Position numbers and translations under genes: made by a program
Notes under the pieces: generated by a model
Told to the model about the DNA's origin: nothing
Databases searched by the model: none
What the model saw: the letters and a program-made list of their open reading frames with translations, nothing else
Part shown: piece after piece, positions 5,771-61,945 of the stretch
Layout of the letters: every line of letters begins with the position of its first letter
How positions within the stretch are numbered: the stretch's first letter is position 1
Origin: an uncultured Candidatus Saccharibacteria bacterium
GTDB taxonomy: Bacteria; Patescibacteriota; Minisyncoccia; Phycocordibacterales; UBA9973
Length of the DNA stretch: 64,000 nucleotides
Reading direction: 5' to 3'
Assembly: GCA_964474435.1 (NCBI GenBank)
Contig: CAYYSI010000001.1
Span: 270,835 to 334,834 of the forward strand

Positions 5771-5885
5771 GTGGACGGACAAAAGAAATGAGAAAAGCCT
5801 GGGGAGGAGCGGTCTGGCGACGGACCGAGAAATTTTTCAGCAGGAAAATTTCGTGCTTTTCGAGTTCTTTTGGCCGGAAACGTAT

Positions 5886-8653: not shown

Positions 8654-8767
8654 TAGTGCGGAAACTGTATCACGGAGAGGGTTTTTTGGCAATTCCCTAT
8701 TTATTGACTTTATTGTTAAATATGCTATAGTAATTAAAAATCAATATTAACCTCAAAACAAACTATC

Positions 8768-33748: not shown

Positions 33749-33966
33749 ATTGTTTATTTTTGTTGAGACTTTACTATAAAAATAGATTCTGTAAATAGAT
33801 ATTCCTTATTTCTGAATATCAGTAATGTCCTGCATGATACCAGAAAATCTGGTTACTACGCCTGCCATAATGCTCCTTATACACCAAAAGTCCTTTCACC
33901 GAATGACGCTTCCTATTATATATGGTAGCACAAAGCAAAAATCCCCGTGAAGGGATTTTTGCTTTG

Positions 33967-34049
33967 TGCGCCGGGCAGGATTTGAACCTGCGTAGCCCGA
34001 AGGCGTCAGATTTACAGTCTGATGTAATTGACCACTCTACCACCGACGC
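33967..34049 (-). tRNA. tRNA-Tyr (anticodon GUA), long variable arm
   Basis: Reverse complement GCGTCGGTGGTAGAGTGGTCAATTACATCAGACTGTAAATCTGACGCCTTCGGGCTACGCAGGTTCAAATCCTGCCCGGCGCA. The cloverleaf has anticodon loop CTGTAAA, a variable hairpin GCC-TTCG-GGC and T-arm GCAGG-TTCAAAT-CCTGC. Confidence 0.75.
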
Positions 34050-36774: not shown

Positions 36775-36981
36775 TATAAAACGTAAACTAAATTACAATA
36801 AAAGACGAGAAGTTCAGCCAAGCAGCGTGGTCGGAAATCAGAAGGTCTGTAGTAATACCACTATAGCATAAAAGTCAACCCGGCAGTAGATCTTGACAGG
36901 AGTCAAGGCTCACTGCCGGGTCAAGGGTTTTCTAATATAAAAAACCTCGACAAAAGCCGGGGTTTTAATTTTTTAATTCAT

Positions 36982-40906: not shown

Positions 40907-40977
40907 GACCTGGTGGCCAAGTGGTAAGGCGGTTCTCTGCAAAAGAACTATACGCGAGTTCGATTCTCGCCCAGGTC
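40907..40977 (+). tRNA. tRNA-Cys (GCA)
   Basis: GACCTGG..anticodon loop CTGCAAA..T-arm GCGAG-TTCGATT-CTCGC..CCAGGTC with U73. Confidence 0.85.
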
Positions 40978-41007
40978 TCCCCACCGTTTAACAACACAAT
41001 ATATTTT

Positions 41008-41090
41008 GCCCGGGTGATGGAATGGTAGACATAGAGGACTTAAAATCCTCAGACAGAAATGTCGTGTGGGTTCGAGTCCCACCCCGGGCA
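41008..41090 (+). tRNA. tRNA-Leu (UAA)
   Basis: GCCCGGG..anticodon loop CTTAAAA..long variable arm..GTGGG-TTCGAGT-CCCAC-CCCGGGC-A. Confidence 0.85.
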
Positions 41091-41152
41091 CACCGAGATA
41101 ATGCTTGAAAGAGTCTGGTATATACGGTATTATTGGCACCAGTACCTAGCGT

Positions 41153-41234
41153 GCTGGAGTGGCGGAATTGGTATACGCGCTGGTCTTAGGAACCAGTGCC
41201 GCAAGGCTTAGGAGTTCAAGTCTCCTCTCCAGCA
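41153..41234 (+). tRNA. tRNA-Leu (UAG)
   Basis: GCTGGAG..anticodon stem CTGGT-CTTAGGA-ACCAG..variable arm..AGGAG-TTCAAGT-CTCCT-CTCCAGC-A. Confidence 0.8.
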
Positions 41235-41260
41235 CCCTGGGTATTCATTCAAAACTAATT

Positions 41261-41333
41261 GCCCCTATAGCTCAGTTGGTAGAGCAGCTCCCTCTTAAGG
41301 AGACGGTCGTAGGTTCGAATCCTACTGGGGGCA
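41261..41333 (+). tRNA. tRNA-Lys (CUU)
   Basis: GCCCCTA-TA-GCTC-AGTTGGTA-GAGC..anticodon loop CTCTTAA..GTAGG-TTCGAAT-CCTAC-TGGGGGC-A. Confidence 0.85.
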
Positions 41334-41344
41334 CACGACGAGAA

Positions 41345-41372
41345 ATATCCCACCTACGTGGGATATTTTCGT
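41345..41372 (+). terminator. Hairpin ATATCCCAC-CTA-GTGGGATAT + TTTCGT after the tRNA cluster
   Basis: A 9-bp stem followed by a T-run. Confidence 0.5.
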
Positions 41373-41515
41373 ACGTGTGCCGGCCGGAGCTATGCCTTTA
41401 GGCAAGCGAGGCGGGGTCGCGACATTTTCCGGAGGAAAATAGTTGTGACCACAGTACAAGAAAATACACCAAAAAAGCCCTCAAAATAGGACTTTTTTGC
41501 TGCGTTATACATATA

Positions 41516-48598: not shown

Positions 48599-49120
48599 TT
48601 ATGGTTTCCTAAAAAGTATAGCATAGTGATGCTCCCCTGCTTCGAGTTTGTCAGTCATGACAGTCAGTCCCATCTTTGCACACAATGCTTCGGCCTGCTC
48701 CTTGCGAAAGACTGACTCAGGTCGAGGCCCCATACCACCGAATGATTCACTCCAATCGACGACCAACATGCGACCGCCCGGCTTTAACACCCGAAGCGCT
48801 TCGTGCATACAGCCTTCTTTGTCCTCAAGTTGAAACAAAATGTTGGACATAATGACAAAGTCCATACTTGCGTCCCCAAGTTTTGATCCCCCATTGATTT
48901 CGATATCTCCCCAGAGTGGATGGAGGTTGCCAATATGCATTTCAGTTGCTTCACGTGTGAGTCGCGCAACAATGTCGCGATGAATTTCTATTGCAAAGAC
49001 ATTGCCTTGTGGCACGAGTGCCGCCGCCGCACGAGAAAGGAATCCTGATCCCGCACCAAAATCAGCAACACTGTCAGTTGATTGTAGATTGCATACGGCG
49101 AGCATCGCGGATGGCTCCAT
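48599..49120 (-). CDS. Class I SAM-dependent methyltransferase (small)
   Basis: Motif I VADFGAGSGFLS and post-I acidic IEI. It is the first gene of the minus-strand operon ahead of the SBP-like and pilin-like genes. Confidence 0.6.
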   Translation of the reverse strand: MEPSAMLAVCNLQSTDSVADFGAGSGFLSRAAAALVPQGNVFAIEIHRDIVARLTREATEMHIGNLHPLWGDIEINGGSKLGDASMDFVIMSNILFQLEDKEGCMHEALRVLKPGGRMLVVDWSESFGGMGPRPESVFRKEQAEALCAKMGLTVMTDKLEAGEHHYAILFRKP

Positions 49121-49150
49121 GAACATGCAATTAGTATAGCAAGTTCTCTC

Positions 49151-49255
49151 GCAAAAACTATTACATTCAATATAAAATAAACGCAGCACATCTCGAGTAC
49201 GCGCTCATCGTGTACTCGGAATGCAAGCTTTTATATTGAATGTAATAGTTTTTGC
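49151..49255. repeat. Long palindrome A: perfect 27-bp inverted arms (GCAAAAACTATTACATTCAATATAAAA) around a 51-bp spacer that has its own 7-bp inverted repeat (CGAGTAC/GTACTCG)
   Basis: Left arm 49151-49177 is the exact reverse complement of 49229-49255. Confidence 0.85.
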
Positions 49256-49272
49256 TCGCTTAAATAAAGAAA

Positions 49273-49380
49273 GACAGCACAAACATTCTTTTTGAAAGCT
49301 TGCACTAGTAGTCGCACGCTTGAGTAAAGCCGTGCGACATACTGTGCTGCGTGTATTTCAAAAAGAATGTTTGTGCTGTC
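49273..49380. repeat. Long palindrome B: perfect 25-bp inverted arms (GACAGCACAAACATTCTTTTTGAAA), plus a nested 8-bp inverted repeat (GTCGCACG/CGTGCGAC) in the 58-bp spacer
   Basis: Left arm 49273-49297 is the exact reverse complement of 49356-49380. Confidence 0.85.
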
Positions 49381-49386
49381 TAAAAC

Positions 49387-51852
49387 CTAGAGGCAAGTAA
49401 CCGAAGCAAGTGTATCCCCTGCTCTCAATTTCATAATAGTCACACCTTGTGTTTGGCGTCCTGATGATGGGATGGTTGCAAGGTCTACTCGGATGACCTG
49501 ACCTTTTTTGGACATTGCGACGAGCTCGGTACCATCGTGCACTACCATTGCTGCCATGATTGCACCAGTCTTTGCGGTAACTTTTGCAGTCTTGATGCCT
49601 GAGCCACCACGCTTTTGGACTTTGTATTCTGTGATCTCTGTTTTCTTGCCGATACCATTTGCACCAAGCGTGAGCATGTATGTGCCTTTTTCTTCGGCAA
49701 CGACGTTTGCGCCAACAATACTGTCTCCTTTGCCAAGTTTCATTGCACGCACGCCACCTGCAGTACGTCCCATTTCGCGAATATCTGATTCTTCAAATCG
49801 GATTGATTGTCCAAGGGTTGAACCGAGGATCACACTCTGCCCTTTTTGCACACGAAGCACTGCCTCAAGCTCATCTCCTGCATCCAAACGGATGGCGATG
49901 ATACCGCTGCGTCTGACGTCTTTGAAGCTATCGTACGTCACCTTCTTTGCGGTTCCCTTTTTCGTAATCAAAAAGAGTGATGCTTTTTCTTCTTTTGCTT
50001 TCTTTGGTACTGCAAGGATAGAGGTGACTTGTTCATCTCCTGCGAGTGAGAGGAAGTTCATGATCGATTTACCTTTTGTAGCACGCTTGCCTTCAGGGAT
50101 TTCGTACATCTTGATCTGGTATGCCTTTCCTTTGTTTGTAAAGAAGAGGAGGTCTGAATGAGTATCAGTTGTGAGAAGCATCGTGACAAAGTCTTCTTCT
50201 TTGGTTTCGAGGTCTATCACACCGACACCTCCACGTTTTTGCTGTTTGTATTCACTCGGATCAGTGCGCTTCACATAGCCACCTGCAGTGAGCACGAGTA
50301 CTGATTCTTTTTCAGGAATAAGGTCTTCGTCAGATATCATTTTTGTGCCACCACTCATAACCTTGGTCTTGCGTTCATCACCATATTTATCTTTGATTTC
50401 ACGAAGCTCATCTGCGATCACTTTGAAAATTTTCTTGGTACTTGCAAGCAAACTTTCGAGCTCTGCAATGAGATCCTGCTTTTCTTTGAGTTCATTTTCG
50501 ACTGCCTTGCGTTCAAGTCCTGCAAGTTTCTGAAGGCGCATTTCCAAGATCGCATCTGCTTGGAGATCTGAGAATTTGAATTCCTTGATCAAGTTGAGCT
50601 TTGCAAGAGCAGCATCTTTGGATGCACGAATAATTGAAATGACTTTGTCGATATGATCGAGTGCCTTTTTCAAGCCCAGCAAGATATGTTCACGATCCTT
50701 TGCCTTTTTGAGATCAAATGCAGTGCGTCGGCGCACGACAACTTCACGGTGTGCAATAAATGAAGTAAGAATTGATTTGATTGATAATGTCTCAGGTACA
50801 CCATCAACGAGGGCAACCATGTTGTAGTGAAATGTTTGTTCGAGTTGTGTGTGCTTATATAAATAGTTGAGGACTTTTTGGGGATTGATACCTGTTTTGA
50901 GAGTGATCACAACACGCATATCTGCCGCTGAGTGATCTTCGAGACCTTTGATGCCTTCGAGCTTTTTGTCTTGCACAAGAGATGCGATGGACTCAACAAA
51001 GTTTGACCGCACGACTTGGTATGGCAGCGACGTAACCGTAATGGTATACATACCACTCTTTGTTTCTCCAATCTCTGCCTCACCGCGACAGACAACTCCG
51101 CCACGACCGGTTGCAAATGCGTGTGCGATATCCGCTTTGTTAAAGACAATGCCGCCTGTTGGGAAGTCAGGGCCCTGCACGATCTCTGCGATGTCTTCGT
51201 TACTTGCACCATCGTTCTCGATCATGTAGAGCGCGGCGTCGACGATCTCGCCGAGGTTGTGAGGCGCAATGTTTGATGCCATACCCACTGCAATACCGAG
51301 CGTACCGTTGAGAAGCAAACTTGGGACAGCTGTTGGCATCACTGTTGGTTCGTTGATTGTTGCATCATAGTTGGGACGATAATCAATCGTATCCTTTTCG
51401 ATATCACGAATCATTTCCATTGCGAGCTTGCTCATACGCGCCTCGGTATAACGCATCGCAGCCTGACTATCCCCATCAACCGATCCAAAGTTTCCCTGTC
51501 CTTTGATAAGGGGGTATCTATACGCAAATTCTTGCGCCATCTTTACCATTGCATCATAGACTGACTGGTCGCCGTGCGGGTGGTATTTACCGAGCACGTC
51601 ACCGACAATCAATGCGCTTTTACGAAACTTTGCAGATGCAACAATACCGTTTTTATACATTGAGAATAAAATGCGTCGGTGTACAGGTTTGAGACCATCA
51701 CGCACGTCAGGCAATGCACGATCGGTAATGACCGACATCGCGTAGTCGATGAAGCTCGTACGCATTTCATTTGCAATGTTTACTTGCAACACACTCTGAC
51801 GAGGTGTTAGAGGAGTCTCTGGAGATGTTTCTGGAGGGGTCTTTTTGGCCAT
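49387..51852 (-). CDS. gyrA: DNA gyrase subunit A
   Basis: Active-site region [10 protein letters not shown] (Tyr), an N-terminal breakage-reunion domain, and a C-terminal beta-pinwheel with a GyrA box-like QxRGGxG motif ([10 protein letters not shown]). Length is 821 aa. Confidence 0.9.
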
Positions 51853-54442: not shown

Positions 54443-54451
54443 TTATAGAAA

Positions 54452-54485
54452 TAAAAAATCCCTGATTTGATTCAGGGATTTTTTA
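54452..54485. terminator. Bidirectional terminator (ATCCCTGA-TTTGAT-TCAGGGAT flanked by A6 and T6)
   Basis: Between rpsA (+) and pth (-). Confidence 0.6.
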
Positions 54486-55064
54486 TTAGTTGTATTGATT
54501 CATCACCTCATCAAAACTCTTTGTTTTGAGCGCATCAATGATCTCTATTGCGCGATTAATCCCCTCTTGTTTCAACTCTTCTTCCATTGGAGCGAAATCT
54601 GAGAGGAGGAACTTTTCAAATCCATCGGGTGGAGCAATACGTGGGAGCAGCTCTTCGTGGACAGGTCTGACACCGATGCGAATACGAAAGAATTCTTTGG
54701 TACCCAAGTGATCGATGACACTTTGCACACCATTGTGTCCACCAGAACCGCGATCAAACGAGCACTTCACAAGGCCGATGTTTATATCGACATCATCATA
54801 GACCACAACGATCCCAGCATCATATTGTTTCGCAAGCATGCGTGCAGCCTTGCCCGAGTCATTCATAAACGTGTCAGGCTTTGCAAGGAGTTGCTGAGGG
54901 CCGTTTTGTGCAAGGTGTGCATGAAAGAGATCCTTTTCAACGAAGTGAAGTCCTTCCTTTGCTGCAATCGCATCAAGTGCCATAAAGCCGACATTGTGCC
55001 GATGGCCTGCGAATTTGTGTCCTGGATTCCCCAAGCCAATAATTATCTTTGTATCACTTTGCAT
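54486..55064 (-). CDS. pth: Peptidyl-tRNA hydrolase
   Basis: IIGLGNPGHKFAGHRHNVGF and the catalytic His/Asp region. Confidence 0.85.
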   Translation of the reverse strand: MQSDTKIIIGLGNPGHKFAGHRHNVGFMALDAIAAKEGLHFVEKDLFHAHLAQNGPQQLLAKPDTFMNDSGKAARMLAKQYDAGIVVVYDDVDINIGLVKCSFDRGSGGHNGVQSVIDHLGTKEFFRIRIGVRPVHEELLPRIAPPDGFEKFLLSDFAPMEEELKQEGINRAIEIIDALKTKSFDEVMNQYN

Positions 55065-60663: not shown

Positions 60664-60921
60664 ATGGGCAAAGTATTGGCAATAATTGGCGTCATCCTCC
60701 TCGTCTGGGTCATGTACCCACATGTTCGTGCGGGTGAATTCATCGCGCCTACCGCTATCGCCCCTGACACATGGATGTCAGACTATGTCTCAAGCCATGG
60801 GCAGGACTACCTCGCCACTCCTCCCCAGGGCTACGGCTGGTTCCGATTCGACTTTTGGAACAATCCGAGCCCCTATGGCCGCACCGTAGAAAAGGACGAC
60901 TTTCGGTTGACCGGGAAGTAG
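60664..60921 (+). CDS. Hypothetical small membrane protein
   Basis: ORF with one TM helix. The start is uncertain. Confidence 0.3.
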   Translation: MGKVLAIIGVILLVWVMYPHVRAGEFIAPTAIAPDTWMSDYVSSHGQDYLATPPQGYGWFRFDFWNNPSPYGRTVEKDDFRLTGK

Positions 60922-61109
60922 ATCTTGGGATCGCACTATATGGGCATGTAATAAAGCTACTATACCAAGGCTCACTTCCCGGTTGAAGTGGTAGGTGAAA
61001 AATGGTATAGTCTGCAAGTTCTTTTTAAAGAGCTCCTCATAGGTTCGAATCCTATTCGGGGAGCACAAATACAATCCCCTGTAGCTCAGCGGTAGAGCAG
61101 TCGCCTGTG

Positions 61110-61661
61110 GAAAGGTGTGGAATGGTATACTTTATTGAGTATGCCAGAAACCCGAACCTATGCCGATCGAGCCGCCTATATGCGCGAAGCTGTCAAAAAA
61201 CGAAGGATTAAACTTCGCGAAATGGCACGCGCATACAAAGGTGGCCGATGTGAAATTTGTGGATACGCTAAATGCAGCCGCGCACTTTCATTTCATCATC
61301 TTGATCCAAAACAAAAAAGCTTTGGGTTATCAGACAAAGGACTTACCCGTTCATGGGAAAAGACCAAGACTGAAATAGATAAATGTATTTTATTGTGTGC
61401 AAACTGTCATATGGAAATCCACGACGGTATTACGCAGCTTCCTGTCCGAAAGGCAGGTCGAAAAACGAAGTGAATTGCTGGAAGTCCTAAACACATAGGA
61501 TAATCAGCAGCCAAGCTTTTGTAGAAATACAATTGAAGGTTCAGAGACTATCCCTAACGGGAGTACTCCGACAATATGTCGGCGGAAGCGCTTCGCACCT
61601 TCCCTTTTTAAAAAGAATGGTGATGATATAGTCCATACCCGCAGTAATGCGAGAATAAATG
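61110..61661 (+). mobile_element. Group I self-splicing intron carrying an HNH homing-endonuclease ORF
   Basis: The conserved core elements are read directly: P-like AATTGCTGGAAG (61474), Q-like AATCAGCAGC (61503), R GTTCAGAGACTAT (61540-61552) and S GATATAGTCC (61624-61633). The intron ends in G before exon 2. Confidence 0.7.
61117..61473 (+). CDS. HNH homing endonuclease (intron-encoded)
   Basis: GGRCEICGYAKCSRALSFHHLDPKQK......CILLCANCHMEIH is the HNH motif with a C-C-C-C zinc scaffold. It lies entirely within the intron, upstream of the catalytic core. Confidence 0.65.
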   Translation: MEWYTLLSMPETRTYADRAAYMREAVKKRRIKLREMARAYKGGRCEICGYAKCSRALSFHHLDPKQKSFGLSDKGLTRSWEKTKTEIDKCILLCANCHMEIHDGITQLPVRKAGRKTK

Positions 61662-61724: not shown

Positions 61725-61910
61725 ATGACCTACCCAGAATTTGTAAAAGAACTTACAGAGCGTTTTGGTGAAGACCAGGGAGTATTTATGGCACTTCGAG
61801 CAGAGGTCGGTTTCCTGCGTAGGTACATGGAAAAACACAGTGGACCAGAGTTCGTACAAGAACAAGAAGTAATGATTGCAGATTTCCTTGAGCGTCATCC
61901 TACTAAATAA
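61725..61910 (+). CDS. Hypothetical small protein (61 aa)
   Basis: An ORF between an extended -10 promoter (TGTTATACT) and a strong terminator. Confidence 0.3.
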   Translation: MTYPEFVKELTERFGEDQGVFMALRAEVGFLRRYMEKHSGPEFVQEQEVMIADFLERHPTK

Positions 61911-61911
61911 C

Positions 61912-61945
61912 AAAAACACCTCCAATATGGAGGTGTTTTTGTATT
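61912..61945. terminator. Bidirectional terminator (ACACCTCC-AATAT-GGAGGTGT + T-run)
   Basis: Seen directly in the sequence. Confidence 0.55.

Follow-up and report, generated by a model that had tools for sequence, protein, structure and literature searches.

The 64-kb stretch analysed here (the window; contig CAYYSI010000001.1, from an uncultured Candidatus Saccharibacteria bacterium) carries two long quasi-palindromes, A and B, in the spacer between gyrA and the gene for a class I S-adenosylmethionine (SAM)-dependent methyltransferase, and these two elements are diverged paralogues lying in opposite orientation. Most likely, A and B represent an elaborate, lineage-specific form of a known kind of element, namely terminator-like extragenic hairpins shaped by template switching. 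The more specific reading, that they are lineage-specific, duplicated terminator- or insulator-like hairpins on the gyrA transcript, kept perfect and flipped by template switching, has in our judgement, from the sequence, about an even chance of being correct. In the direction of gyrA transcription, the locus comprises:

49387–51852, minus strand: gyrA, 821 aa, with the stop codon TAG at 49387–49389
49272–49381, plus strand: element B, a 110-nt quasi-palindrome whose canonical orientation (AAAGCTTGCA ... TGTGCTGCGTGTATTT) is antisense to gyrA
49356–49381, unstranded: right arm of B, 26 nt, from the inverted-repeat search
49298–49355, plus strand: core of B, 58 nt, nearly fully paired, with an inner repeat at 49311–49318 / 49331–49338 (8 nt, perfect)
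49272–49297, unstranded: left arm of B, 26 nt, 100% complementary to 49356–49381
49256–49271, minus strand: B–A spacer, 16 nt, reading TTCTTTATTTAAGCGA on the gyrA-sense strand, a U-rich tail directly after B
49151–49255, minus strand: element A, a 105-nt quasi-palindrome whose canonical orientation is that of the gyrA sense strand
49229–49255, unstranded: arm of A on the side towards B, 27 nt, from the inverted-repeat search
49178–49228, minus strand: core of A, 51 nt, with the inner hairpin CCGAGTACACG-ATGAG-CGCGTACTCGAG, then UGUGCUGCGUUUAUUUU
49151–49177, unstranded: arm of A adjoining the methyltransferase promoter, 27 nt, from the inverted-repeat search
49133–49141, minus strand: TGCTATACT, read directly, the putative extended −10 promoter element of the operon encoding the methyltransferase, a solute-binding protein (SBP) and pilins
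48599–49126, minus strand: methyltransferase gene (class I, SAM-dependent; 175 aa), with which the downstream operon begins

An earlier note on this DNA had described two long, near-perfect palindromes between gyrA and the methyltransferase gene, and on recounting the arms of both were found to be 100% complementary, with no mismatch. The inverted-repeat search paired 49151–49177 with 49229–49255 in A (27 nt, with 51 nt between the arms, exactly as described before) and 49272–49297 with 49356–49381 in B (26 nt, with 58 nt between the arms). For B, the exact pairing reported earlier thus stands, but the arms, previously given as 25 bp at 49273–49380, are one pair longer on each side. A and B were the two longest inverted repeats of the window under two seed settings, and by our own estimate a perfect 26-bp inverted repeat within 150 nt would be expected by chance ~1e-9 times in 64 kb of the same composition. 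Nested inner repeats, also noted before, are present in both elements, perfect over 8 nt in B and 80% complementary over 15 nt in A (49189–49203 / 49209–49223, with the core CGAGTAC/GTACTCG). Moreover, the cores of A and B are themselves nearly fully paired, so that each element forms a ~45-bp hairpin with a terminal loop of 5 nt, a single asymmetric internal loop and one or two bulges; the stems are A+T-rich in their outer part.

For the 280-nt gyrA/methyltransferase spacer, the predicted fold of the minus strand had −125 kcal/mol and that of the plus strand −128 kcal/mol, compared with ~−63 kcal/mol for shuffled sequences (z ~−13). The whole 230 bp spanned by the two elements shows a higher-order two-fold symmetry, formed by the repeats I3 and I4, which are 82% complementary. 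The spacer is no artefact of assembly, since four independent Logan assemblies of this strain, reached via the SBP protein, contain it in identical form.

The two palindromes had been taken to differ from each other in sequence, and this proved wrong. The minus strand of A aligned locally to the plus strand of B with z = 8.9, none of 300 shuffles (0/300) aligning as well, whereas the other relative orientation gave z = 1.0. Furthermore, A and B have in common, in the same order, ACATTC, AAAGCTTGCA, TGTGCTGCGTNTATTT and GAATGT. Taken together, the alignment and the shared motifs in order identify A and B as two diverged copies of one element in opposite orientation. The sequence formed by the B–A spacer and the end of the B arm, TGTGCTGTCTTTCTTT, also resembles the second of the two longer shared motifs, which are located as follows:

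49222–49231, minus strand: shared motif 1, AAAGCTTGCA, A copy
49295–49304, plus strand: shared motif 1, AAAGCTTGCA, B copy
49175–49190, minus strand: shared motif 2, TGTGCTGCGTTTATTT, A copy
49343–49358, plus strand: shared motif 2, TGTGCTGCGTGTATTT, B copy

A second lineage carrying both elements, L130 (Logan DRR379884), has a GyrA protein 99% identical to that of the window strain and gyrA DNA of ~92% mean identity over 100-nt windows. B is identical at 108 of its 110 positions in L130, including all 58 of the core, and the 2 differences are the two sides of a single pair, changed from A–T to G–C. The core of A together with 3 nt of each arm is likewise identical (57/57) and lies on the opposite strand relative to gyrA. 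The arms of A, by comparison, are only ~70% identical in L130 and still pair, with one position forming G–U on the gyrA-sense strand; all 10 mismatches and both gap openings of the 103-nt alignment of A fall within the arms. Of the 29 arm pairs compared across the four alleles, 13 show a two-sided change and 0 a one-sided change; 99.2% of the cells are paired, and the arm pairing lies above that of every shuffle and every slid control. The B–A spacer (12–16 nt) differs in L130, whereas hardly any difference is seen in the promoter and the outer flanks. In all five assemblies of the window strain, the four from Logan and the window itself, the core of A has the same orientation. The opposite-orientation paralogy, the inversion of the core, the Watson-Crick co-variation of the arms and the turnover of hairpin types in relatives described below had not been foreseen in the earlier note.

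The corresponding spacer was compared in relatives with a GyrA protein identity of 86–91%. The gene order and the promoter motif are kept throughout, and the content of the spacer is different every time. L127 has a 42-nt spacer without a hairpin. L125 carries a ~95-nt quasi-palindrome, H1, in addition to a classical T-run terminator, and L128 carries H1 plus a T-run terminator with a 68-nt module, M, inside the terminator loop between the 6-bp direct repeats TTTTCG. In L134 and L138, two inverted copies of H1 form a 250-nt super-hairpin; in L142, a 110-nt hairpin with 27-nt arms around M is followed by TTTTTT; and L146 has another mixture, an inverted H1 with new arms. Because its content differs in each relative, the gyrA–methyltransferase spacer is a hotspot of hairpin turnover, in which long hairpins arise, duplicate in inverted form, flip and get replaced. 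In the relatives at 86–91% GyrA identity, the spacer thus holds either nothing (42 nt) or long hairpins unrelated to A and B. The members of the two other families are:

L125 12467–12563: H1 family, ~95 nt, conserved core, variable arms
L128 12474–12569: H1 family
L134 4206–4305 and 4362–4463: H1 family, two copies
L146 ~8657–8721: H1 family
window 5789–5864, plus strand: module M, ~68 nt
L142 8483–8548: module M
L128 12612–12681: module M

H1 occurs singly, inverted or as an inverted pair, which parallels the behaviour of A and B. Homology of A and B to H1 was considered and found unsupported, local alignments reaching z of at most 1.4. Module M reads GGAGGAGCG.CTGGCGACGGA..GAGAA, then a co-varying 8-bp hairpin and TTTCGTGC, with A-tract/T-tract arms around it. 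At 5789–5864 of the window, it lies at an unrelated locus between convergent open reading frames (ORFs), and in two relatives it lies in the gyrA 3′ spacer. No Rfam family matched module M even at an E-value of up to 1, and it may be an undescribed small RNA of the candidate phyla radiation (CPR), a terminator motif or a small mobile module.

The position of A and B points to the 3′ end of the gyrA transcript. B begins 5 nt past the gyrA stop codon and, on the gyrA-sense strand, is followed directly by TTCTTTATTT (49271–49262), with 8 T in 10 nt. A has the sense-strand ends GCAAAAAC...GTTTTTGC, in which the T-run GTTTTTGC lies inside the stem and closes the 3′ arm, and GAGAGAA comes next after A. 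The previous statement that neither palindrome is followed by a T-run is therefore true of the plus strand only. A terminator scan flagged one sub-hairpin, at 49205–49185 in the core of A, in sense orientation, as the only sub-hairpin recognised. The strongest candidate for a terminator is B, with the tail UUCUUUAUUU. The end of A is 9 nt from the TGCTATACT element and 24 nt from the ATG at 49126, which is the start used in public gene calls (175 aa); the methyltransferase start had previously been placed at 49120, whereas the gyrA stop at 49387–49389 agrees with the earlier description. TGCTATACT lies exactly 6 nt upstream of this ATG (49124–49126), both here and in relatives with and without hairpins, and so short a distance between an extended −10 element and the start codon suggests a leaderless mRNA for the methyltransferase–SBP–pilin operon.

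Ordinary intergenic hairpins elsewhere in the window, at 33928–33969, 54450–54487, 41330–41381 and 61910–61942, are perfect 16–18-bp palindromes with paired A- and T-tracts in the style of bidirectional terminators; one among these four is a 24-nt imperfect pair, and one adjoins tRNA-Tyr. A and B look like extended versions of this local terminator style.

The 3′ untranslated spacer of gyrA thus holds A and B here, and ordinary or other elaborate terminator hairpins in relatives. There, A and B probably bring about factor-independent termination, insulation or 3′-end protection of the gyrA transcript and would separate gyrA from the methyltransferase–SBP–pilin operon, itself provided with its own putative extended −10 promoter. 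Given the position 3′ of gyrA, the U-rich tail of B, the ordinary terminators of relatives and the local terminator style, termination, insulation or 3′-end protection is the most likely role. The earlier note had listed four unranked options, which were partly supported: a REP/MITE-like mobile element, an RNA structure or RNase III site by which gyrA is uncoupled from the operon after it, a protein-binding operator, and a cruciform. Among them, the decoupling of gyrA from the next operon is favoured by the hairpins between the gyrA stop codon and the extended −10 element, the U-rich tail of B and the T-run terminators in relatives.

Like intrinsic terminators, including bidirectional ones of the A-tract/hairpin/T-tract type, A and B are found directly after a stop codon and before the next promoter, form stable hairpins, and in the window have a sense-strand U-rich tail (after B, weaker in L130) or A-tract/T-tract ends (in A); ordinary T-run terminators occupy the same position in L125 and L128. 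The usual intrinsic terminator has a G+C-rich stem of 5–14 bp and a loop of 3–8 nt. Unlike such terminators, A and B have ~45-bp stems with a nested inner hairpin, are two in tandem, contain conserved internal-loop motifs and have a core of unfixed orientation.

Template switching during replication would explain the form of the hairpins. Switching between the arms of a quasi-palindrome would copy one arm onto the other, leaving the arms strictly Watson-Crick, and could also invert the spacer between the arms, producing the flipped, identical core of A. If an imperfect ancestor was homogenised in different directions, as little as a single event, or a few, could have produced the many arm differences of A between the lineages. 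Arm homogenisation and spacer inversion are both among the outcomes of template switching described in PMC8604942 and PMC8794818, and A and B resemble such template-switched quasi-palindromes in having perfect Watson-Crick arms despite the divergence of the copies and a spacer inverted between lineages. Template switching in this sense is a mutational mechanism and not a functional class, and its operation at this locus is deduced from two alleles, with no outgroup allele. The mechanism would account for Watson-Crick arms without G–U intermediates, for the both-sided change in B and for the flipped core. The unusual length and perfection of A and B are better explained by mutation mechanics at the DNA level than by selection.

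Several observations weigh against a plain terminator. The stems, at ~45 bp, are far longer than those of classical intrinsic terminators, and the U-tract after B is weaker in the L130 allele, which has TTTTCCTG only. The orientation of the A core varies between lineages and the canonical orientation of B is antisense to gyrA, so that a strand-specific terminator cannot require the conserved asymmetric loop motifs. L127 has no hairpin, so any function must be dispensable. Furthermore, B (108/110) and the core of A (57/57) are better conserved than the gyrA DNA (~92%), which hints at a sequence-specific constraint beyond what a plain terminator needs. By our own arithmetic, the probability of 57/57 matches at 92% identity is ~0.009, yet some gyrA windows reach 99% and the comparison involves two lineages only. 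The internal-loop motifs common to A and B may simply reflect common descent.

If A and B are indeed terminator-like hairpins shaped in this way, they provide a natural example of template switching building, perfecting and flipping long hairpins at the 3′ end of a gene, in a reduced CPR genome, a setting in which intrinsic terminators and insulators have hardly been studied. Both-sided, 'compensatory' changes in a hairpin need then not signal RNA-level selection, and the spacer hotspot in this clade could serve for studies of how terminators are born and lost. No new molecular system is indicated by A and B.

To assess how widespread the elements are, we searched for further copies. The motif pair AAAGCTTGCA/TGTGCTGCGTNTATTT occurs twice in the 64-kb window, in A and in B, with no other occurrence there. 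A covariance model, R1, was built from the four alleles (A and B of the window strain and of L130) and scored A at 114 bits on the minus strand versus 50 bits on the plus strand. Run with filters off, R1 found A and B only in the window, the next matches being ordinary 30–50-nt terminator hairpins, and no member in 13 sources from relatives totalling 225 kb. A scan of IMG/VR with a 25-base motif gave 0 matches, and a distant blastn search gave no match in phage and plasmid collections. A 22-base motif retrieved from the JGI metagenomes 3 identical chance matches, all from one brine organism and without hairpin arms. Among contigs of isolates and metagenome-assembled genomes, the pattern AAGCTTGCAN{20,50}TGTGCTGCG, with 18 specified bases, matched at least 120 chance loci, 0 of them with flanking inverted repeats, the pattern being too loose to show absence there. 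No Rfam family reached its gathering score at the locus, the Rfam scan proposed earlier thus yielding no family match, and at an E-value of up to 10 the only matches were generic microRNA-precursor hairpin models at 15–24 bits versus thresholds of 50–200. The neighbouring proteins are represented by just two sequence variants in a 15-billion-protein collection (cluster look-up), which limits the known occurrence of A and B to two lineages.

That A and B are instead a low-copy, non-autonomous mobile element of the miniature inverted-repeat transposable element (MITE), Correia or REPIN type, brought into a permissive spacer by two insertions or by one inverted duplication, seems unlikely to us, although much in their appearance would fit. 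At 105–110 bp, with 26–27-bp terminal inverted repeats, they fall within the MITE/Correia range and recall the ~100–110-bp extragenic elements with ~26-bp terminal inverted repeats among the MITE-like palindromes (Correia/NEMIS, RUP, ERIC) and repetitive extragenic palindromes (REP/REPIN/BIME). Like such elements, they occur in either orientation and as an inverted pair, as do the H1 pairs in L134, and they are variably present among close relatives, the L127 spacer being empty (42 nt); in relatives this spacer contains further families of hairpins, and one of these, module M, recurs at 5789–5864. However, there are two copies only, at one locus, with none elsewhere in the window, the 225 kb of relatives, the JGI metagenomes, IMG/VR or the phage and plasmid collections. 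Terminal repeats bound by a transposase are normally the conserved part of an element, whereas here the arms of A, of B and of the L130 A allele are strongly divergent, 13 of 29 pairs having changed. The flanks, GGTTTT-B-TTCTTT and AAGCGA-A-GAGAGA, share 1–2 nt at most and show no clear direct repeat or convincing target-site duplication, and no partner transposase or recombinase gene was seen within ~8 kb. REPs are 20–40-bp imperfect palindromes of high copy number that bear the tag GTAG or CGTC and have a partner RAYT transposase; the units of A and B measure 105–110 nt, the window alleles have no conserved GTAG/CGTC end, and no RAYT or Y1 transposase was present in the ORFs scanned. The copy test bearing on the suggestion of a MITE- or REP-like palindrome was thus essentially negative. 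Rather unlikely, too, is a sequence-specific structured RNA in the 3′ untranslated region (UTR) of gyrA, such as a site for RNase III or an RNA-binding protein or the source of a 3′UTR-derived small RNA, in which the recognised feature would be the conserved internal loop, 5′ UU / 3′ GUNUA, with GC pairs and GCAY/RUGC pairs on its flanks. The loop motifs do not differ among A, B and the two L130 alleles, whereas the arms show variation that is fully compensated, B and the A core are conserved above the neighbouring coding DNA, the sole non-Watson-Crick arm position in L130 is a G–U on the gyrA-sense strand, and the predicted folds are very stable. Yet no single transcript can present the same loop in all copies, given that the core has opposite orientations in the two lineages and that A and B occupy opposite strands. 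Moreover, the complete lack of one-sided (G–U) changes among 29 arm pairs would be unusual under RNA-level selection, no Rfam family emerges even at an E-value of up to 10, and A and B are absent from the relatives at 86–91% GyrA identity.

We regard as distinctly unlikely a more general 'core plus free arms' class of hairpins in Paceibacteria relatives, with a conserved, flipping core of ~50–60 nt and arms of ~27–30 nt that need only to pair, and equally so its corollary, that A/B, H1 and the M-containing hairpin are families of this class which colonise the gyrA 3′ spacer and replace each other there, in many cases as inverted pairs. Such a class, if real, could amount to a new kind of small mobile or self-propagating hairpin element, or to a switch of the pilin operon, going beyond mere terminators. 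A site acting at the DNA level, cruciform-prone or protein-binding, beside gyrA and overlapping the downstream −35 region, for instance a gyrase or nucleoid-protein site or a supercoiling-sensitive element, would make the orientation irrelevant. The strictly Watson-Crick arms, the conservation of the core whatever its orientation, the arm of A adjoining the promoter and the two-fold symmetry of the 230 bp (I3/I4, 82% complementary) are compatible with this idea, and REP/BIME palindromes are gyrase-binding sites in E. coli. It nevertheless appears improbable, as neither a candidate binding protein nor a known motif emerged, relatives without the A/B sequences keep both flanking genes and the promoter, and position alone ties A and B to gyrase. 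Very improbable is an inversion switch in which the A core would flip between its 27-bp arms and thereby alter expression of the pilin operon or termination of gyrA. Like invertons, A has inverted repeats around a segment known in both orientations, with a core that is 100% identical, and it lies directly upstream of the promoter of a surface/pilin operon. However, the two orientations are found only between lineages ~8% apart in gyrA DNA, and a single one in the five window-strain assemblies. Unlike invertons, the segment of A is 51–57 nt long, and 51 nt is very short for recombinase-mediated inversion; it contains no convincing promoter, the one weak promoter-like match in the core being no more than shuffles yield, and no invertase or recombinase domain was detected in the neighbouring ORFs.

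Other known systems were compared with the locus and rejected. TIGR-Tas arrays have box C/D motifs that flank dual spacers in an open loop and an adjacent Nop-domain Tas protein (PMC12045711). A and B are like TIGR stem-loop arrays (PMC12045711) in occurring in CPR bacteria as tandem stem-loops with variable yet consistently palindromic stems. Unlike those arrays, they have neither C and D boxes, with no CUGA or RUGAUGA pairs in the cores, nor an open dual-spacer loop, and no Nop-domain Tas protein is encoded in the neighbouring ORFs. Integron attC sites were likewise dismissed: they have the consensus ends R″ RYYYAAC ... R′ GTTRRRY as well as extrahelical bases, and go with an integron integrase, whereas the ends GCAAAAAC...GTTTTTGC and AGACAGC...GCTGTCT do not fit this consensus, and there is no integrase nearby. 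For a retron, a 6S- or signal recognition particle-like RNA, oriC and parS, the locus lacks the consensus ends, its neighbourhood contains neither a reverse transcriptase nor an integrase gene, no Rfam match was obtained and GC skew does not turn at the site.

The genes around the spacer encode GyrA, the small class I SAM-dependent methyltransferase, the solute-binding protein and several T4SS-pilin-domain proteins, and among the ORFs scanned within ~8 kb there was no transposase, recombinase, reverse transcriptase or Nop-domain protein. Judging by GyrA homologues, the organism falls within the CPR group named Paceibacterota, Pacebacteria or Nomurabacteria. Two further hairpins of the window, at 36878–36921 and 60910–60983, gave no Rfam match at gathering score and have in common the motif CCGG(C/G)AAGTAGATCTTG ... 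CAAGGCTCAC(T)(G/T)CC(C)GG, with a longer insert in the second; the two may represent a recurrent structured RNA motif. A group I intron (Rfam RF00028, 82 bits) lies at 61381–61654 on the plus strand of the window, for which no rRNA was reported, and another such intron is located in L125 at 41–355 on the minus strand. Just past the pilin-gene cluster, at 40907–41334 on the plus strand of the window, four tRNA genes (Cys, Leu-taa, Leu-tag and Lys-ctt) are clustered.

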